From assembly GCA_964592405.1 (NCBI GenBank), contig CAZQBY010000003.1, positions 1 through 64,000 of the forward strand: DNA of 64,000 nt. Direction: 5' to 3'. This document shows, one piece after another, positions 23,913-34,047 of the stretch (its first letter is position 1; the number at the start of each line of letters is the position of its first letter). The position numbers were made by a program, and so were the translations under genes. Under the pieces are notes generated by a model. The model was not told the DNA's origin. It made no database searches and saw only the letters and a list, made by a program, of their open reading frames with translations. Source of the stretch: an uncultured archaeon. Lineage in GTDB: Archaea > Altiarchaeota > Altiarchaeia > JAFGQM01.

Positions 23913-24028
23913 GAGGAGTTAACAACTGGAGAATTAAAAACTTGTGGATCGGGAAATTGACAGACATGGGTTTATATTGGCCTGATGTTTATATTAAACA
24001 TTATATTAAGCTAATTCCTAAAAAGAGG

Positions 24029-25411
24029 ATGAAAAGGTTTTTGATTATAGCATTGCTTTTGATGATTGGAGGGGCATCGGCAATCACCTGCCCATTCTGT
24101 AGTGGCAAGGTCGTAGAGGTTTGCAACGTGGACATCCAGCCCGAAAAGCCTGTTTACCGCCAAGACCTTGTGCTAAACATAACAAAGGGTTTTCTCCGCC
24201 ACTTTGAACCAATCGAAGAGGGTACGGAAGTTGAAATATGGTTTTACAACACCACGACTAATGTAAAGAAGGTCAAACTTGAGACTGATGAGAGAGGGAT
24301 TATCAGATTCACACCAGAGATAGTCGGTTATCATCTTATAAAGGTGTGTGGAAAGAGTATTCTTGTGTTTGTGAACACCACATGCGGTGATGGTATCTGT
24401 TATGGTTATGAAGCCCGGGGGAACTGCCCCGAAGACTGTGGATTCTGTGGAGATTATATATGCGACGCCAACGAAGACATCAACTGCCCTGATTGTGCCA
24501 AGTGTGGAGATGGAATATGCAGTGGGGGGGAGAACAAGGAAACCTGCATCATAGACTGCTATGTATGTGGCGATAAGGTATGCGATGAGCCGGAGGATTA
24601 TGGATCCTGCAGGCTGGACTGCCCATCCGGAGGAGAGGATGGTCTGTGCGACATGCAGGCTGATGGTATATGTGATCCAGACTGCAGGTTTGAAGAGGAC
24701 ATAGACTGCAGGGTTGTTAACGAGGAGGTTGATTATCCCGGTTCGATAGAAAGAGAAGAGAACGGCTTTGACTTCATGTTCTACATCCCTGTGGCCATAA
24801 TAGCAGTATGCGCTGTAGTTATGGTGTTTCTCTTCATGAAGTATGGCAGGACGGATGAAAGGCTTGAAGGGTGGGGGCTGGAGAAAGCTGGGGCAGGGGC
24901 AGGGACAAAAACAAAAGCTGCTGAAGAGCAGAAGGCTCTGGAAGAAGAGAAGGAGCTCGCACGCATAGCTGAAGAGCAGAAGAGGAAGGCTCTTGAGGAG
25001 GAAAGGCGCGTCTTAGAGGCCCAGAAGAAGGCTCTGGAAGAAGAGAAGAAAAGATTAGAGGAGGAAAAACGGGCAGCGGAGCAGAAAATAAAAGAAGAGC
25101 TCAGGCACACAGCAGAGCGAAAGAGGAGATATCGCGAGTTACAACGCGAGGAAGCCAGGAGAAGGGCGGAGGAAGAAAGGAAGAAAAAGGAAGAGGAGAT
25201 GAGGCGCAGAGAGGCTGAGAGATGGAGAGAATTGATAAGCAGAAAATATGCCAGGGAGGAGGTCGGCCAAAAGAAGGAGCCAAAGCCTCCAAAAACAAAA
25301 ATCCAGAAGAAACAGAAGGAAGCGCCGAAAGAATCTCCACAGGGTGAAGAAGAGGTTCACAAAAGCGTCAAAGAGTTTCTCAATGAGCTGAAAGAGAGGG
25401 TGGGCAGATAG
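24029..25411 (+). CDS. Cys-rich (CGDG-repeat) surface protein with TM and long charged cytoplasmic helix
   Basis: Signal peptide at MKRFLII; four CGDxxC..E...CxxDC repeats; DGICDPDC; TM; E/K/R-rich tail. Confidence 0.8.
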   Translation: MKRFLIIALLLMIGGASAITCPFCSGKVVEVCNVDIQPEKPVYRQDLVLNITKGFLRHFEPIEEGTEVEIWFYNTTTNVKKVKLETDERGIIRFTPEIVGYHLIKVCGKSILVFVNTTCGDGICYGYEARGNCPEDCGFCGDYICDANEDINCPDCAKCGDGICSGGENKETCIIDCYVCGDKVCDEPEDYGSCRLDCPSGGEDGLCDMQADGICDPDCRFEEDIDCRVVNEEVDYPGSIEREENGFDFMFYIPVAIIAVCAVVMVFLFMKYGRTDERLEGWGLEKAGAGAGTKTKAAEEQKALEEEKELARIAEEQKRKALEEERRVLEAQKKALEEEKKRLEEEKRAAEQKIKEELRHTAERKRRYRELQREEARRRAEEERKKKEEEMRRREAERWRELISRKYAREEVGQKKEPKPPKTKIQKKQKEAPKESPQGEEEVHKSVKEFLNELKERVGR

Positions 25412-26287: not shown

Positions 26288-26518
26288 TTATTCATCAATG
26301 GTGGTATACCCGGTCTCGTCCACTATCTCGCGAATGGTGCGGGGAGTCTGCCTTCTGGTATCAAATAGTATCGTTACGACACCGCTGACATAATTGGCCT
26401 TCACATCTTCTATCCCCCCGGCAGAATTCCTTATCATTGTCTCACACCGCCGGGCATGGCCCTCTGTGAACAGTCCATCCACCCTGAGGGTCATCTTTGA
26501 GAGCCTCTTCTGGGACAT
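26288..26518 (-). CDS. Heavy-metal-associated (HMA/CopZ-like) domain protein with degenerate CxxC
   Basis: LRVDG...GIEDVKANYVSGVVTILFD...IREIVDETGY fold pattern; MxCxxC replaced by LFTEGH, with a single Cys in the following ARRC. Confidence 0.65.
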   Translation of the reverse strand: MSQKRLSKMTLRVDGLFTEGHARRCETMIRNSAGGIEDVKANYVSGVVTILFDTRRQTPRTIREIVDETGYTTIDE

Positions 26519-26797: not shown

Positions 26798-27106
26798 ATG
26801 ACCTGTTATATAATACCAACAGCGGCTGCTGTTGTCCATTATCTTGTAAGAACCCGCAGGCCTAGTTTAAAGCACAATACCCACCATCTATGGCTGAATC
26901 TATTATTTCTGGGTGGGGCCATCTTCGGTGTGATTGACCATTTATGGAATGGAGAGCTTTTCCTTTTTGGGGAGAATCTCCTCTTGGACTTGACACTGGG
27001 GGTTACAATTACTGCCTCAATAATAGTTGTGTGGGCCCTTATTGTGGTGTTGGACAAAAGCTTAGCTAGGGATATCGTGCAAAAACCAGAATTTTTACAG
27101 GGATAA
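26798..27106 (+). CDS. Small membrane protein
   Basis: Three hydrophobic segments; GAIFGVIDHLWNGEL. Confidence 0.7.
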   Translation: MTCYIIPTAAAVVHYLVRTRRPSLKHNTHHLWLNLLFLGGAIFGVIDHLWNGELFLFGENLLLDLTLGVTITASIIVVWALIVVLDKSLARDIVQKPEFLQG

Positions 27107-27191
27107 AATGACATACCTAGAGGAATCTTTGCTACCGGGTTGATTGGAATCTTTATGTTATCTATGGTTATATCAATCATCGAGCGTGAGG

Positions 27192-27512
27192 ATGCATGAG
27201 ACCGTATTCGCAAACAGGATAATAGAGGAGGCAAGGAAAGAGGGTGAAATCACTGGAATAAGTGTGGAGGTGGGCGAGCTTGCGCATATCCCGGCCCGGG
27301 AACTCAAGGAGGCATTAGAAAGGCTGGTCGACTGGGATATTGAGATAATAGAGAAAAGGGCGAAGGTGAGATGCCCCTGTGGGTTTGAGGGGCATCCGAA
27401 GATTCTGGAAAAGGGCCACGATTACACTCTCTTCCAGTGTCCAAGATGTGCCAGAGTCCCTGAAGTCATGGAAGGTGGGGATATTATATTAAAAGAAGTA
27501 AGATGTGTCTAG
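27192..27512 (+). CDS. hypA: Hydrogenase nickel metallochaperone HypA
   Basis: MHE N-terminus, VEVGELA, CPC...CPRC. Confidence 0.9.
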   Translation: MHETVFANRIIEEARKEGEITGISVEVGELAHIPARELKEALERLVDWDIEIIEKRAKVRCPCGFEGHPKILEKGHDYTLFQCPRCARVPEVMEGGDIILKEVRCV

Positions 27513-27712
27513 CCATCCCTGGACGGGTTATCGAGGTCAGGGGAGACGTCGCGACCGTAGACTATGGGGGCGAGAAAAGAAAGGCGAGGATCGAGGATAT
27601 CCGCGTGTCTCCGGGAGATTATGTGATAGTCCAGTTCGGATTCGTGATGCAAAAGCTGGCAGAAGAGGAAGCATTGAAGAGTCTGGAGACATGGACTAGT
27701 TTGAAGGACTGA
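27503..27712 (+). CDS. hypC: HypC/HupF hydrogenase maturation chaperone (conserved His replaced by Gln)
   Basis: MCLAIPGRV N-terminus; PGDYVIVQFGF where the family has VxVHxG. Confidence 0.9.
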   Translation: MCLAIPGRVIEVRGDVATVDYGGEKRKARIEDIRVSPGDYVIVQFGFVMQKLAEEEALKSLETWTSLKD

Positions 27713-28403
27713 CGCTTCCAATAGCCTCGAGGGTAAGCCTTTCCAGATTCTTTTTCTGCGTTTTGGCGAGTACTTCTACTGCATGGTCCCAATGAATAGA
27801 GACATAATCTCCCTCTTTTATGAATAACAGCTCCGGATCGAACAGAATTTTTTTCTCCCGAGGTTCCGAGAGGAGAAACCCGTCTTCCAAAAGGAGCTCT
27901 CTGCGGACCACGGTGGCGTGGTCATCAGTTACATCATCTACGCGGCCGCATGAAATCATGCACTTGTCCATGTTGCCGACCGTGCTCGGGAGGGAGCCGG
28001 TAGTCCTCCCCGGACCAACGTAAAGGACGTGGAAGTTGTGGGTGAGGGGCATCGTCCGGGGGGGGTTCTTCAGCAGCTCGTCACGGATGGATTCAGGCAG
28101 TCCCCTTTTCCCCAGAAGGGAGAGCAAGGCCGTGAGATCCCGCTCTCCATATCCTCTGGACAACTCATTGCCGATCCAGTAGGCCTCGACCACGTCCGGA
28201 TCAAAGGGCTGCAGACCGTGCCTCTTCGAGATTATCTCCAGGTAGGGATACAGGGCCTCGAAGCGGGTCAAGAGCCTGGCCGCTTCCCCGTCGTCCCCTA
28301 GGATGAATCTCCTCAATCCCTCCGCTGCTCCGGGGGGGCCGCAGAAGCCCAGCTTGTTCGTTATCAGGGAATACCTGCAACAAAGCCTAACTCCTTCCAT
28401 CAT
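27696..28403 (-). CDS. DUF6390-like protein with HypC-like C-terminal domain
   Basis: YSLITNKLGFCGP, FEALYPYL, VVEAYWIGN, HNFHV, C-terminal EGDYVSIHWD. Confidence 0.75.
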   Translation of the reverse strand: MMEGVRLCCRYSLITNKLGFCGPPGAAEGLRRFILGDDGEAARLLTRFEALYPYLEIISKRHGLQPFDPDVVEAYWIGNELSRGYGERDLTALLSLLGKRGLPESIRDELLKNPPRTMPLTHNFHVLYVGPGRTTGSLPSTVGNMDKCMISCGRVDDVTDDHATVVRRELLLEDGFLLSEPREKKILFDPELLFIKEGDYVSIHWDHAVEVLAKTQKKNLERLTLEAIGSVSPSN

Positions 28404-29295
28404 ACACCCTCAGCTTGGTCATTATCCCCTCAGGAATCCGACCGCTGAGAAATACCATAGTCACGACCCCGGAAATCAAGAACGCCGTGCCCAATATGTG
28501 GCCCGGGAGTATGGTCCCGTTCATCAACGTGGCAGAAAGGAGCGTGGTGATCGGGCTGCCCAGAAGCAGGATAGAAGTCGCCACGTGCGCTTTCACGGTC
28601 TGGAGTCCTGTGTAGAAGGTAATCACGTAAAGGAAGAGGAAGCCGGAGGTGAGCAGCACCCAGGGCCAGTGCCCGACCAGGGAGCCCGCCTCGGCTATCG
28701 AGCCCGTGGCCGTCAAGAAGATCAGAAGGAACACGGCACCGAAGAACATTCTCCCGAATGCCACTATTGAAGGTGAAAGTGTGCTTAGGGTATGCTTGGA
28801 TATAATTACCTCCACTGCCCAAAACAAGGTAGCCAGCAGGATAAGCAAGTCCCCCATTCCCAAACCTAACGGGAGATTCAAAAAGATAGCATTTCCTGCG
28901 AGCAGCAGGGTGGCAGGAATCAGGATTCTCTTGCCCAGCCTCTCCTTTAGTAAAAGGGCAGCGAGCACTGCCACATAGATGAACATGGTCTTGTGGATAA
29001 AGGCGCCCCTAGCGGCCGTGGTCATCTGGAGGCCGTTGAAGAACAGCAGGAAGGGGATGCTCCCCCCAAAAAGACCGATCGCAGCCAGACGCAGCCAGTC
29101 CCTCCTCCCCAGGACCCTCAGTTCTCTGAACTTCCTGACGAAGAGTATCAGAGCGAACAACAATAGCGCCGTGATAAGGTTCTTGCTCCAGGTATAAACG
29201 CTGGCGTTGATTCCCGATACGCCAACCCTGTTTACAAAAATGGATACTCCACTGATGACGGCAGTAGCTAGGACCAGATAAACCCCCCTTGCCAT
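28387..29295 (-). CDS. DMT/EamA-family transporter
   Basis: About 10 TM helices, LLKERL, two EamA repeats. Confidence 0.88.
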   Translation of the reverse strand: MARGVYLVLATAVISGVSIFVNRVGVSGINASVYTWSKNLITALLLFALILFVRKFRELRVLGRRDWLRLAAIGLFGGSIPFLLFFNGLQMTTAARGAFIHKTMFIYVAVLAALLLKERLGKRILIPATLLLAGNAIFLNLPLGLGMGDLLILLATLFWAVEVIISKHTLSTLSPSIVAFGRMFFGAVFLLIFLTATGSIAEAGSLVGHWPWVLLTSGFLFLYVITFYTGLQTVKAHVATSILLLGSPITTLLSATLMNGTILPGHILGTAFLISGVVTMVFLSGRIPEGIMTKLRVYDGRS

Positions 29296-29327
29296 TTTTC
29301 ATTATGATAAGCAAAGAATAGATAAAA

Positions 29328-29690
29328 ATGCTCAAGGTGTTCTGTTTCGGGAACGAGTGGGTGGAGGGCGACAGCTTGGCCAAGGAGCTGGCCGATGAAT
29401 TGGAGATTGACGGAGTCAAGTTCATAAAATGTGACGATGTTGAGGATGTGGAAGACGGTGTCATCTTGGATGTGGTGAGGGGGCTGGATGATGTCCAAGT
29501 GGTTACGGAGCTGGACCGATTCAAATCCCTCCAGCCATGTTCGGCTCACGATTTGGACCTGGCGTTCTTCCTTAAACTGCTGAAGGAGATGGGGCATCTG
29601 AACGAAGTGAAGATAATATGCCTGCCTATGGGGATGGAGAAGGAAAGGGCCAAAAAAGAGCTTAGGAGGCTACTCCCAGACAACATCTAG
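29328..29690 (+). CDS. Minimal hydrogenase maturation endopeptidase (HycI/HybD-like)
   Basis: FGN....DS, VILDVV, SAHDLDL. Confidence 0.7.
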   Translation: MLKVFCFGNEWVEGDSLAKELADELEIDGVKFIKCDDVEDVEDGVILDVVRGLDDVQVVTELDRFKSLQPCSAHDLDLAFFLKLLKEMGHLNEVKIICLPMGMEKERAKKELRRLLPDNI

Positions 29691-30941
29691 GAAATGTGTT
29701 GAACAGGAGATGCAGGGATCGTAGGCCCTGATGAGTTGCTCGATCTTGGATACTATCACGTCCCGGCTCTCGCCCAGGAGCGAAGGGAGCAGGGCCCTGA
29801 TATTCTCCTCCATATTCTCCAGATTCTGCGACGTGGGGGTTGTGATGTTTATCCTCTTGGCGTAGCCATCCTTGTCAAACTCGTATTTGTGGAAGAGGAT
29901 TCCCCGGGGCGCTTCTATGGCTCCGAAACCCACGCCTTTTTTCGGTCTGACATCAGCCGGGTCTTCTTTCTTTACCTTGATGGTCTTTATTATTTCCTCT
30001 GCCCTCCTAAAGCCCTCGTATATCTCCAAGGCTTGGGCGAGATTGTTCATGTAGGGCGAAAACCTCTTCTTTTCAATGAGTTGGACATAGGGCTTCGATC
30101 CCCGCGAGAGGGCATCTCCATTGTTCAATACCCTAGCCAGAGCGCCGACCATGTAGTCCTTCCCCCCGGCGTCGACGAACTCGGAGGTCGAGCCCGGGAC
30201 AAAGTATTCCCTGAAATGTTTTTCATAGTCTCTCACAGGAACACATCGAATGCCCCTACACAAGATTGTCTTGTCGCCGAAGAAATAGGGTTCGCCCTTC
30301 AGCGCAAAATAATCTCTCTCCCTTTCAAATTCTGGGTAGCTGAGCTTGGCGAAGGTCTTCATTGCGTTCTCCGCTGCCCTCCTGATGCCCCTGACTTGTT
30401 TTAGGAGGGCATCCAGCTCCTTCTGGTTGGGTTGTTTGGAGAATCCACCCGGCAGGAAGGTGAAGGGATGCACGTCCCGCCCCCCGACGACCCTGACCAT
30501 CCCACTTGCGACCCTCTTTATCTTAAGGCCTTGCTCCAAGAGCGTCCTGTGTCTCTTGACCATGCCTAGGGCGCTGTCATACCCCAGATAGTCGGGCAGG
30601 ACCATGAAGTACAGGTGGAGTGCATGGCTCTGAATGATGCCGCCCAGATGCGCGAGCTCTCTGAGGGCCCGGGTCTGTTTGGAGACTGATACATTGAAGG
30701 CGTTTTCTATGGCCCTGAGAGACGCCAGACCGTGGGCTACGGAACACACGCCGCAGATCCTCGACGAGATGGGACCCAGATCCGTGTAGAGCTGGTTCCT
30801 GAGTATCTTCTCGAAAAACCTGCTCCCCTCAAATATCTCCAAATTGGCCTTTTTGATCTTATCTCCATCTATCTTGATGGTCAGCTTCGCGTGGCCTTCA
30901 ATCTTGGTGACAAATTCCTTTTTAATGATTTTTTCTGCCAT
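29670..30941 (-). CDS. hydA: [NiFe]-hydrogenase large (alpha) subunit, group 3b-like
   Basis: KIEGHA, SRICGVCSVAH (L1), EAPRGILFH, RAYDPCISCSTH (L2) plus a cleavable C-terminal tail. Confidence 0.95.
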   Translation of the reverse strand: MAEKIIKKEFVTKIEGHAKLTIKIDGDKIKKANLEIFEGSRFFEKILRNQLYTDLGPISSRICGVCSVAHGLASLRAIENAFNVSVSKQTRALRELAHLGGIIQSHALHLYFMVLPDYLGYDSALGMVKRHRTLLEQGLKIKRVASGMVRVVGGRDVHPFTFLPGGFSKQPNQKELDALLKQVRGIRRAAENAMKTFAKLSYPEFERERDYFALKGEPYFFGDKTILCRGIRCVPVRDYEKHFREYFVPGSTSEFVDAGGKDYMVGALARVLNNGDALSRGSKPYVQLIEKKRFSPYMNNLAQALEIYEGFRRAEEIIKTIKVKKEDPADVRPKKGVGFGAIEAPRGILFHKYEFDKDGYAKRINITTPTSQNLENMEENIRALLPSLLGESRDVIVSKIEQLIRAYDPCISCSTHFLDVVWE

Positions 30942-31695
30942 GTTTTGATTCCTTGAGTTCCTTCGAGCCGAACCTCCTGATCTTGTTTATGGCTTCCTTT
31001 TTGGAGATGCCAAAGGATTCCAGGAGTCTTATCTCTGCGTACAGATCGGCGTTCTCCAAGGGCCCTCTGCACAGAGTACAGGGCATGTTGTTCCTTATGC
31101 ACAGGGCATTACAGCCGCCGTTGGTTATGGGACCCAGACATTCTATCTTGTTCAGCATATAACAGTCAGGCTTCCCCCTCCGCGGGCACTCCAGACAGAC
31201 GGGCCCTCTGAACTCCTTGGGCTTTTCTCCTTTTATGAACTGGCTGATAAACTGAATGAATTCGTCTTTGATTATCGGACAGCCGTACATGAAATAGTCG
31301 ACCTTCACGAAGTCGCTTATGGGTGAAACTTCGATCCAGTCCCTAGCAAGCTTCTGACTGTAGATATATTTTCCCAAGGCCCTTCGCTTGAGTTGGTTTC
31401 TCATGGCCGGAATCCCCCCATGGGCCGCACACTCGCCGAAGGCCACAAGGTATTTTGACTTAGCCCTTATCCTCTTTAGCTCTCTCATCTCATGCTTGGA
31501 GGATATCGCCCCCTCCACAAAAGCCAGATCAAAGTCTGTTTCAGCGTTCTTTTCCTTTATGAGATGGAAATACTGGATATCCAGTTTGTCAAACAACTCG
31601 AGCAGTTCATCTAGGAAAAGGACCGTGAACTCGCAGCCTTCGCAGCACGTAAACGAGAAGAAACCGACCACCGGCTTGCCCCTCTCCATGAGCAT
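30922..31695 (-). CDS. hydD: [NiFe]-hydrogenase small (delta) subunit, group 3b-like
   Basis: TCCEGC, VEGAI, FGECAAHGGI, GCP, CLEC...CLGPITNGGCNALC..PCTLCRGP. Confidence 0.93.
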   Translation of the reverse strand: MLMERGKPVVGFFSFTCCEGCEFTVLFLDELLELFDKLDIQYFHLIKEKNAETDFDLAFVEGAISSKHEMRELKRIRAKSKYLVAFGECAAHGGIPAMRNQLKRRALGKYIYSQKLARDWIEVSPISDFVKVDYFMYGCPIIKDEFIQFISQFIKGEKPKEFRGPVCLECPRRGKPDCYMLNKIECLGPITNGGCNALCIRNNMPCTLCRGPLENADLYAEIRLLESFGISKKEAINKIRRFGSKELKESKHGRKNH

Positions 31696-32496: not shown

Positions 32497-34047
32497 CTAG
32501 ATCCTGTCCTTGCAGGCATCCCTCTGCCGCTTGTCCTCTATCTCATTACAGGCCTTACGAGCCATGGATGGGTTGTCGGAGGCCAGAATCCCAGCCAACT
32601 GCTGCAAGCAGTCCCATACCTGCTGATCACTGGGCAGATCCAAACAAAGGCCTATGGCCAGTTGAGGACATTCCCTAGCCCTCCGGCCATAATCGTCACC
32701 GATTATACTTCGCACTGCACAGAATAGGTCATCTATATAGTCGCATATCTCGGTGACCTCCTGACAGGTCTCAGCCGACCACAGGAGATCCTGCAGACAG
32801 CTCTCCTTGCTCCACCCTCCTGACACATGCTGGCAGACGGTAATTTTTTGAGATATATTCTCCATCAACTGCATGACTAAGCGGTAGCAATCCTCGGAGG
32901 ACCGCCCAAAGGGAAAACCCTTAATCATTCCGCAGGTCTCTATGGCAAAATTCAGGTCTGACGGGGCTGTGATGCGGGCTATCTTGACATAACAGTCAGT
33001 GGCCATTGTTCCCTCCATAGAACCACAACAGTATTCCCTCGCCCCTGCAGGGTTTTCCATTATAAATTCGTCAGAACACGCGCTCCTGAAGCAGTCCTCC
33101 CTGCGATTCTTGCTTATGTGGTCCCTGCAGATTCTTATCGCTGAAAGAGGATTTTCCAAGTGTGCCATGACGCCATTAAGAAGGCAGTCGTCCCTCCGGT
33201 TGACTCCGGTTATCTTCAAGCATGCCTGTATTGCCTCCTGAAGAGAAGTGGAGACTATGTTCTCTGCCACCATATAAAAACAGTCATTTGAGTTCCCCTC
33301 AGAGAGCAAGCCACAGAGATCTAATACTCGGTCAGGATACTGCATTATGATATCCTTGGATTTCTGGAAGAGGTCCCAGTAACACATTTTGGAATCGGCC
33401 TCGTCATCTATTTTCCCACACAGTTCTAGGGAGAGGGATATATTCTGGTTGGCAGCTTCAATGCTTACCCTGCGATAGCACTCGTTCCTCATCTCAGCCT
33501 CGAAGAGCATATCGCAATACTTAGCCGCCTTTTGCGGATCTTCAGTAATTATCTTCTCCATCATATTCTTATAGCACCTGTCCCTGTCACCCAAGTCTGA
33601 AATTGAGGAACAGTCTGAAGGAGACTTCTTGAGTATCATGTTGGTGGATTCCTCTCCCGGAGCCCTGCTAAGAGCGTTTGCCATCAGAAGGAGCCCTGTT
33701 ATCAAAAGTGCAATGGCGACTGCCAGAGTGGCAATGTTCTTTGGGCTGGCAAACCTTGCAGAAGTGACAGGACCTCCATATTTCCTCCGCAGTTCATCTA
33801 TCTGCTTGCTGGCGAGGGAGAGCTCCTCCTCGTATTCGCGTATGAGCTTGTCGGCCTTGTCCCCCTCTATCCGCCTCCTGTAGAAGTCCAAGCGGGTGGT
33901 CTTTATCAGGTCCTTGAGCTGTTTCGTCCTCAGCTCCAGGCGGGACATCTCGTCGCCGGGTCCGCGGCTGCTGATCAGCCTGTAGAACAGAAAGGCGGCA
34001 ATGCCTATGCATGCCAGGCCTGATATGATGAGCTCCTCAGTTGCCAT
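32497..34047 (-). CDS. Membrane protein with TM-coiled coil-TM N-terminus and Cys-rich helical repeats
   Basis: About ten C..I......D.CY-type repeats; two N-terminal TM helices. Confidence 0.8.
   Translation of the reverse strand: MATEELIISGLACIGIAAFLFYRLISSRGPGDEMSRLELRTKQLKDLIKTTRLDFYRRRIEGDKADKLIREYEEELSLASKQIDELRRKYGGPVTSARFASPKNIATLAVAIALLITGLLLMANALSRAPGEESTNMILKKSPSDCSSISDLGDRDRCYKNMMEKIITEDPQKAAKYCDMLFEAEMRNECYRRVSIEAANQNISLSLELCGKIDDEADSKMCYWDLFQKSKDIIMQYPDRVLDLCGLLSEGNSNDCFYMVAENIVSTSLQEAIQACLKITGVNRRDDCLLNGVMAHLENPLSAIRICRDHISKNRREDCFRSACSDEFIMENPAGAREYCCGSMEGTMATDCYVKIARITAPSDLNFAIETCGMIKGFPFGRSSEDCYRLVMQLMENISQKITVCQHVSGGWSKESCLQDLLWSAETCQEVTEICDYIDDLFCAVRSIIGDDYGRRARECPQLAIGLCLDLPSDQQVWDCLQQLAGILASDNPSMARKACNEIEDKRQRDACKDRI

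Follow-up and report, generated by a model that had tools for sequence, protein, structure and literature searches.

A DUF6390 protein with a HypC-like domain and its EamA permease accompany [NiFe]-hydrogenases in genomes that mostly lack HypD, HypE and HypF

A 64,000-nucleotide stretch from an uncultured archaeon of the Altiarchaeota (assembly GCA_964592405.1, contig CAZQBY010000003.1, positions 1 to 64,000; hereafter the window) encodes a [NiFe]-hydrogenase together with a HypC, a protein of the family DUF6390 and a permease of the EamA family. We find that DUF6390 and its permease belong to a real, conserved and apparently unpublished [NiFe]-hydrogenase accessory module. An apparently normal hydrogenase large subunit stands without HypD, HypE and HypF in 44 of the 50 DUF6390-bearing genomes surveyed, most of which share instead the conserved pair of permease and HypC-like protein. 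The Fe(CN)2CO unit of every [NiFe]-hydrogenase is generally held to require HypC, HypD, HypE and HypF, and we know of no described Hyp system that includes a permease of the drug/metabolite transporter (DMT) family. As we read it, with about even chances of being right, the EamA-DUF6390 pair is a permease-coupled, HypC-derived metal scaffold that would load HypC or the enzyme itself where HypD, HypE and HypF (HypDEF) are missing.

Results

Distribution of DUF6390 and absence of HypD, HypE and HypF

The genome to which the window belongs (G000; 1.13 Mb in 22 contigs, 87.48% complete) encodes a single DUF6390 protein. The first-pass annotation of the window had pointed out the lack of hypB, hypD, hypE and hypF at the hydrogenase locus, and this lack extends to the whole genome. 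Genome-wide profile searches gave no match to HypD or HypB, and the matches to HypE (at most 60.7 bits against a cut-off of 251.6) and HypF (at most 38.9 bits against 466.1) stayed far below threshold and look like paralogues.

Relatives of DUF6390 were found in at least 594 genome stretches, of which the best 80 were retained. The record titles of these 80 loci name Woesearchaeota, Nanoarchaeota, Thermoplasmata, Iainarchaeum, Patescibacteria groups, Acidimicrobiia and Chloroflexota. For a whole-genome survey, 50 genomes were taken from the 80 loci, with longer contigs chosen. All 50 contain a [NiFe] large subunit and 42 a HypC, while HypD, HypE and HypF were each detected in six (HypE over the cut-off in five and split into two pieces in one). 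The three proteins are confined to the same six carriers (G060, G068, G070, G075, G086 and G088). Thus, DUF6390 does not routinely co-occur with HypD. Eight carriers (G067, G071, G072, G073, G074, G081, G085 and G087), with genomes of 0.6-1.3 Mb and Patescibacteria-type record titles, gave no match to HypC, HypD, HypE or HypF; in these, DUF6390 is the sole HypC-like protein.

As a control for detectability, HypD was searched for in 41 relatives of the window genome and found in 12. A large-subunit match is present in 19 of the 41, with HypD in 11 and without it in eight. A clear DUF6390 was seen in three of the genomes tabulated (G000, G019 and G025), all of which lack HypD. A class-level search of 61 genomes returned no new DUF6390 carrier.

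Several loci carry features of their own. In G068, which has HypC, HypD, HypE and HypF, the DUF6390 protein (L066:9995-10720) has Ala at the position of C148 and no EamA within 8 kb; in this single case, selection could have been relaxed by the presence of the canonical pathway. Two genomes of 2.7-2.8 Mb labelled Chloroflexota (G080 and G083; loci L083 and L087) lack HypDEF and have DUF6390, EamA and HypC beside longer large subunits encoded by open reading frames (ORFs) of more than 600 amino acids (aa); the family His of their HypCs is replaced by Tyr or Asp. These two loci indicate that the module is not limited to 3b-like enzymes or tiny genomes. The Thermoplasmata carrier G060 has a second hydrogenase locus (G060:C1:338882-343565) in which hypF and hypC are followed by a hypD containing three TGA codons in frame and by a hypE that is broken up over two frames. 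We dropped the idea that the broken hypD and hypE represent decay of the canonical pathway, as they may be indel errors of a long-read assembly.

EamA permease as partner of DUF6390

All ORFs within 8 kb of DUF6390 were clustered in 81 loci, i.e., the best 80 and the window. EamA is the commonest recurring family, present in 65 loci, and in 61 of these it lies upstream of DUF6390 on the same strand. The other recurring families are the large subunit (56 loci), HypC (52), the small subunit (49), HypA (35, in two clusters of 12 and 23), two diaphorase-type subunits (33 each) and the mini-protease (31). Save for lineage-specific neighbours, e.g., pyruvate-ferredoxin oxidoreductase genes, no further family recurs within 8 kb in the 81 loci. 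Among the 16 loci without EamA, three end at a contig edge just upstream, and in two the DUF6390 ORF itself was left unclustered.

The coupling extends to the protein level. A search for longer relatives of DUF6390 returned two proteins, the full-length P0122 of 558 aa and the partial P0121 of 424 aa, both of which are EamA-DUF6390 fusions. In a hand cross-tabulation of interrelated genomes and small numbers, EamA was found beside DUF6390 in 38 of the 44 HypDEF-less genomes versus one of the six with HypDEF. The polar residues conserved in the permease are E118, E162, K167 and R182, and no Cys or His is conserved. EamA is the tightest partner of DUF6390 and had been undervalued in the first-pass annotation. 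That annotation had offered two roles for DUF6390, i.e., replacing HypD or receiving or salvaging a preformed cofactor, and the tight coupling to a permease favours the second.

Domain structure and HypC ancestry of DUF6390

DUF6390 consists of a helical N-terminal domain (N-domain; residues ~1-147, containing C21 and H122) and a C-terminal domain (C-domain; residues 148-231, containing C148 and H204) formed by a HypC-like oligonucleotide/oligosaccharide-binding (OB) fold and a C-terminal helix. The structure model, computed from a 26-sequence alignment, has a predicted local distance difference test (pLDDT) value of 96.9. When the model was compared with 48,161 solved chains, the HypC chain 2z1c_A was the top hit and the sole match with Z of at least 5 (root-mean-square deviation 1.9 Å, 70/71 residues, model residues 149-231 onto chain residues 3-72), at a Z of 5.7 that falls in a range possibly reflecting a common arrangement. 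The second match was E. coli HypC (2ot2, Z 4.6), followed by generic OB folds. The register of the model on 2z1c_A sets C148 at the position of Cys2, the conserved N-terminal cysteine of HypC. Profile comparison of 28 DUF6390 C-domains with 32 linked HypCs by hhalign gave a probability of 94.75% (E 5.6e-8), and in the profile alignment C148 falls on Cys2, and H204 on the His/Gln column of HypC (Gln44 in the window protein). Judged by these profile and model comparisons, the C-domain of DUF6390 is derived from HypC.

The four residues are nearly invariant: among 79 relatives, C21 is conserved in 78, H122 in 79, C148 in 78 and H204 in 78. C21 and C148 are the only two conserved cysteines, so DUF6390 cannot hold a cluster of the HypD type. 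A HypC-like, His-bearing C-terminal segment had already been recognized in the first-pass annotation, together with the motifs GFCGP, HNFH, DKCMISC and YVSIHWDH, all of which are found in the translation. The homology to HypC and the histidine (H204) hold up. The equivalent of Cys2, however, is C148, the first Cys of DKCMISC, and not the Cys of the CGRV motif (C152), which is Trp in 54 of the 79 relatives.

At E 0.01 or better, PF19927 is the sole Pfam family matched by the DUF6390 protein of the window; neither PF01455, the HypC family, nor PF01924, the HypD family, is among its matches. A Foldseek search with the whole model found nothing at E 0.001 or better, with HypC (2z1c_B) at rank 42 and E 0.04. 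The N-domain, folded alone with a pLDDT of 92.2, reached at best a VIA-align Z of 3.9 (weak four-helix rows resembling acyl carrier protein) and a Foldseek E of 2.5; HypD was absent among its listed structural matches, and an ESM Atlas query with residues 1-146 returned no usable match.

A divergent form of the module is found in G020, a relative of the window genome without HypD (L097:7361-9013). It encodes a 175-aa short DUF6390-like variant that scores 27.9 bits with PF19927 and 26.9 bits, just under the cut-off, with PF01455, and that was overlooked by the six-frame PF19927 search of the genome. Beside the variant lie an EamA gene, encoded on the opposite strand, and a HypC-like gene in which the His site falls in a Tyr-rich stretch, and the module adjoins a protease and the large and small subunits of a hydrogenase.

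His-to-Gln switch in HypC and predicted docking onto DUF6390

The HypC of the window, the sole HypC match in its genome, begins with MCLAIPG and so retains Cys2. Its segment DYVIVQFGF aligns with DWVIVHTGF of the solved T. kodakaraensis HypC 2z1c (E 1.4e-18), and Gln44 falls on the histidine of the solved HypCs 2z1c, 3vyr and 3d3r. The His of the family feature VxVHxG is therefore absent and replaced by Gln. Both observations, Cys2 retention and Gln in place of His, had been made in the first-pass annotation and are borne out by the alignment. Among 52 DUF6390-linked HypCs, Cys2 is kept without exception, and the His column holds Gln in 37, His in seven, Ser and Tyr in two each, and Val, Leu, Asn and Asp in one each. 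In HypD-bearing relatives (n = 5), by contrast, all six HypCs have His. As far as these alignments reach, the His-to-Gln switch is general among DUF6390-linked HypCs.

A complex of DUF6390 and HypC, with Fe included, was modelled with a score of 0.62 (runs 0.62, 0.64 and 0.57), compared to 0.00 for the best of three controls. In the calibration of the method, 116 of 157 solved complexes and two of 215 mismatched pairs reach that mark, which is a rough guide here given custom alignments and a riding ligand. The runs share at least 82% of contacts and the pLDDT of the partner is at least 82. In the modelled interface, residues 1-6 and 44-47 of HypC, including Cys2 and Gln44, face residues 19-21 (C21), 147-148 (C148) and the 97-106 loop of DUF6390. 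The Cys2 face of HypC is thus predicted to dock onto C21 and C148, in line with the interaction for which complex modelling had been proposed in the first-pass annotation.

Hydrogenase and gene arrangement in the window

Residues 9-418 of the window large subunit align with the solved sulfhydrogenase 1 alpha subunit 9nez_D (E 5.2e-71). The motifs RICxxCSxAH (RICGVCSVAH), EAPRGIL, TPT and RAYDPCISCSxH (RAYDPCISCSTH) are retained in alignment with 9nez_D, and both the N- and the C-terminal Cys pairs are present. Beyond the final His, the protein carries a seven-residue tail of the kind that a protease would remove. As every motif common to sulfhydrogenase 1 is kept, a standard NiFe(CN)2CO active site is expected, and the protein looks like an enzyme that requires this centre. 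The best NCBIfam model is ShyA, at 297.4 bits against an equivalog cut-off of 700, and the second ShyA/HydA model scores 257 bits against 880. With scores below these cut-offs, we describe the subunit as 3b-like and not as an equivalog. Our reading further supposes that the hydrogenase becomes active.

Seven tightly packed genes spanning 27192-31695 form one [NiFe]-hydrogenase unit with a set of helper genes (Table 1). Gene identities were assigned by Pfam and NCBIfam profile matches to the window translations. The five genes listed in the first-pass annotation (hypA, hypC, DUF6390, EamA and mini-protease) were all located as described, and Pfam agrees with their naming, the protease scoring below the cut-off.

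Table 1 Genes of the hydrogenase unit in the window and their profile matches.
Gene	Position	Strand	Length (aa)	Profile match
hypA, nickel metallochaperone	27192..27512	+	106, from ATG	PF01155, 33.1 bits (cut-off 28.9)
hypC, Gln-type	27503..27712	+	69	PF01455, 80.4 bits (cut-off 28.5); TIGR00074, 67.4 bits (cut-off 48)
DUF6390 gene	27696..28403	-	235	PF19927, 126.4 bits (cut-off 25), residues 3-230
EamA/DMT permease	28387..29295	-	302	PF00892, 118.4 bits, two repeats
HycI-like mini hydrogenase maturation endopeptidase	29328..29690	+	120	PF01750, 21.5 bits (under cut-off 23)
[NiFe] large subunit, group 3b-like	29670..30941	-	423	PF00374, 101.3 bits
[NiFe] small subunit, ShyD/HydD-like	30922..31695	-	257	PF01058, 87.1 bits

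The hypA frame is open up to an alternative TTG start at 27144, and the NCBIfam HypA models score below their cut-offs. hypA overlaps hypC by 10 bp. The hypC and DUF6390 genes are convergent with an overlap of 17 bp, and the EamA gene, directly upstream of DUF6390, overlaps the DUF6390 start by another 17 bp. The mini-protease also scores only 16.7 bits with TIGR00072; despite this weak profile match, the same protein cluster recurs in 31 of the 81 loci. The small subunit reaches 165.7 bits with the NCBIfam model ShyD, below the cut-off. In the window the hydrogenase has the large and small subunits only (29670-31695); a search confined to the surrounding 8 kb showed neither of the two diaphorase-type subunits.

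Near upstream of hypA, two genes encode a 76-aa protein (26288-26518, minus strand) with a weak match to a heavy-metal-associated domain (22.6 bits, under the cut-off) and a 102-aa His-rich membrane protein without a family match (26798-27106, plus strand); neither recurs in related loci. The hydrogenase region is flanked by genes for two large Cys-rich proteins: a 489-aa protein (23942-25411, plus strand) that contains repeats of a CGDxxC-type motif and has a long tail rich in Lys and Glu, and a 516-aa protein (32497-34047, minus strand) with many Cys pairs.

Discussion

Comparison with known maturation systems

HypD carries a set of cysteines for a [4Fe-4S] cluster and further conserved cysteines. 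DUF6390 resembles the HypC/HybG/HupF family (PF01455, TIGR00074; 2z1c, 3vyr, 2ot2, 3d3r) in the OB barrel and C-terminal helix of its C-domain, where Cys and His likewise occupy the positions of Cys2 and of the family His. It differs in that this Cys is internal, placed behind a helical domain of 147 residues so that the free N-terminal Cys is lost, and in its coupling to a permease and the lack of a PF01455 match. The HypC encoded beside it is a member of the family by model score and departs from it by the Gln.

In the canonical pathway, as outlined in the abstracts of PMC6886295, PMC8454700 and PMC12130793, Fe(CN)2CO is assembled on a HypC-HypD scaffold complex with HypE and HypF. The arrangement predicted here is similar in that HypC would dock through its Cys2 face on a partner offering conserved cysteines, and in that 44 of the 50 carriers of the module are without HypD. 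It differs in that DUF6390 has no match to HypD, no four-Cys cluster site and no fold match for its N-domain, and no HypE or HypF partners supply cyanide.

Small group-3b-related hydrogenase clusters, hyd1 and hyd2, with a hypC-like family nearby have been described in bacteria of the Candidate Phyla Radiation (CPR) (Jaffe et al. 2020, PMC7304191). They are the same kind of small 3b-like cluster, and several of our related loci come from CPR/Patescibacteria records; the window small subunit is full length (257 aa), whereas the hyd2 form is truncated. The main text of the article does not contain the word maturation, and its passages on these clusters mention neither DUF6390 nor a permease nor missing HypDEF. 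An account of 3b hydrogenases in Woesearchaeota (PMC8421398) leaves maturation undiscussed, the word occurring zero times in its text, and in passages of PMC11216029 a parallel puzzle is raised for [FeFe] maturases only. Our literature searches found no relevant paper on DUF6390, on EamA with HypC, on HypC and HypD in Patescibacteria, or on [NiFe] maturation without HypD or HypF.

A possible permease-coupled scaffold

In the proposed mechanism, DUF6390 would be a cytoplasmic, soluble two-domain partner of the EamA permease. Its OB domain has kept the Cys (C148) and His (H204) of HypC, to which the N-domain adds a second near-invariant Cys and His (C21 and H122). The protein would receive the cargo of the permease, most likely an iron-containing unit, or else a metal or ligand for the active site, and would hold it on the Cys/His site. 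It would then hand the cargo to Cys2 of HypC or, in carriers that have no HypC, directly to the large subunit, and this handover would operate in lineages without HypD, HypE and HypF. In this scheme DUF6390 would bind a metal and, as suggested by the docking model, HypC; inward movement and the nature of the cargo are what we infer for the permease. The HypC ancestry of DUF6390, its co-variation with HypC and the absence of HypDEF all point toward an iron unit or its ligands as cargo.

A further-reaching version holds that EamA, DUF6390 and the Gln-type HypC form an import or salvage route for the iron part of the [NiFe] active site, with EamA bringing in a preformed iron-carbonyl-cyanide unit or a ligand precursor. 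DUF6390 would capture this on its Cys/His site and pass it to HypC or the large subunit. In lineages labelled DPANN-type archaea, Thermoplasmata, Patescibacteria and, in part, Chloroflexota, [NiFe] maturation would thereby proceed without HypD, HypE and HypF. We consider this version rather unlikely.

Several points weigh against the scaffold reading. The polar residues conserved in the permease and its lack of conserved Cys or His are more in keeping with transport of an organic or anionic compound than of a bare soft metal, and none of the conserved neighbours within 8 kb in the 81 loci is able to make cyanide or CO. DUF6390 is not exclusive to HypDEF-less genomes, as six of the 50 carriers have both; conversely, the HypD-less relatives G014, G018, G022 and G040, with a large-subunit match that is partial in G040, have no DUF6390 detectable by the Pfam model or by the short variant of G020. 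The HypDEF-less state therefore neither requires DUF6390 nor follows from its presence. OB folds are widespread, which tempers the structural match to HypC. As to sampling, the 50 carriers are the closest relatives of the window protein and not a random sample of the family, and the genomes are mostly metagenome bins, with completeness figures covering G000 and its relatives but not the 50 carriers. One carrier, G041, is unpublished; leaving it out, the counts become 49/49 for the large subunit, 41/49 for HypC and 6/49 for HypD.

Alternative explanations

The main rival to the scaffold reading is nickel supply, which keeps this place given that neither HypB nor NicO nor CbiM was found in the genome. 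Here, EamA would import nickel or a complex of nickel with an amino acid or metallophore, and DUF6390 would act as a nickel chaperone with a Cys/His site, making up for the absence of HypB and of a nickel transporter, unrelated to Fe(CN)2CO. Nickel could well be bound by a site of two Cys and two His, the cluster includes hypA in 35 of the 81 loci, and DMT-family carriers typically move organic molecules, possibly including metal chelates. The transporter search, however, covered the NicO and CbiM families only, Nik-type ATP-binding cassette systems and HupE/UreJ not having been searched. Moreover, the C-domain appears to derive from an iron chaperone, HypC, and not from a nickel protein; the co-varying partner is a HypC with a His-to-Gln switch, whose Cys2 the docking model sets on a conserved Cys of DUF6390; and the missing HypDEF would be left unexplained. 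We regard nickel supply as unlikely.

The role of a true HypD substitute, proposed in the first-pass annotation, is unsupported as stated. It would have DUF6390 and HypC build Fe(CN)2CO de novo on the Cys/His site, with the ligand enzymes encoded elsewhere. The canonical site is described as shared between Cys2 of HypC and a Cys of HypD, and the model does bring Cys2 next to C21 and C148 in a family whose carriers lack HypD in 44 of 50 cases. Yet two conserved cysteines leave no room for a [4Fe-4S] cluster, DUF6390 does not match the HypD model, its N-domain is without a fold match, no candidate gene for making the cyanide and CO ligands recurs within 8 kb, and the tightly coupled permease would be left without a role. 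The idea is weakened further by the six genomes that have both DUF6390 and HypDEF and by the four HypD-less relatives that lack DUF6390, and we hold it to be improbable. Of the alternative maturation route suggested in the same annotation, then, the underlying observation and the absence of HypDEF stand, as does the preference for receiving or salvaging that the permease lends it, whereas the replacement of HypD does not.

DUF6390 might instead be an ordinary accessory chaperone, i.e., a HypC paralogue specific to its hydrogenase and comparable to HybG or HupF, with HypDEF either unassembled or provided by a host. The window genome, at 87.48%, is incomplete, many carriers belong to small-genome lineages labelled Woesearchaeota, Nanoarchaeota or Patescibacteria, and six carriers do have HypDEF. 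Assembly gaps nevertheless cannot explain the pattern, since the same three genes are missing from 44 independent assemblies when the large subunit is present in 50 of 50, a coincidence that chance makes implausible. HypD was easily detected in 12 of the 41 comparable relatives, and the carriers include genomes of 1.5-2.9 Mb labelled Thermoplasmata and Chloroflexota. Provision of proteins or cofactor by a host would itself be new. The chances of this explanation appear slim.

Equally doubtful is a function outside maturation, in which DUF6390 would be a regulatory or sensing domain gating a permease that exports a hydrogenase-linked product or by-product, e.g., a sulfur compound: a regulatory role is common for soluble domains fused to permeases and the two EamA-DUF6390 fusions fit this pattern, but nearly every relative of DUF6390 retains the HypC-type Cys and His, the separate HypC varies along with DUF6390 and should, according to the model, dock on the Cys face of DUF6390, and eight carriers have no other HypC-like protein.

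Implications

The association of the EamA-DUF6390 module with HypDEF-less genomes would surprise specialists and is directly testable. If the hydrogenases of these genomes are active, another source of the iron-carbonyl-cyanide unit must exist. This would bear on hydrogen metabolism in very abundant small-genome archaea and bacteria, on metabolic annotations that call functional hydrogenases, on the extent of cofactor sharing between cells and on the minimal gene sets for hydrogenase production in other hosts. The module offers a concrete, cloneable handle on alternative maturation.

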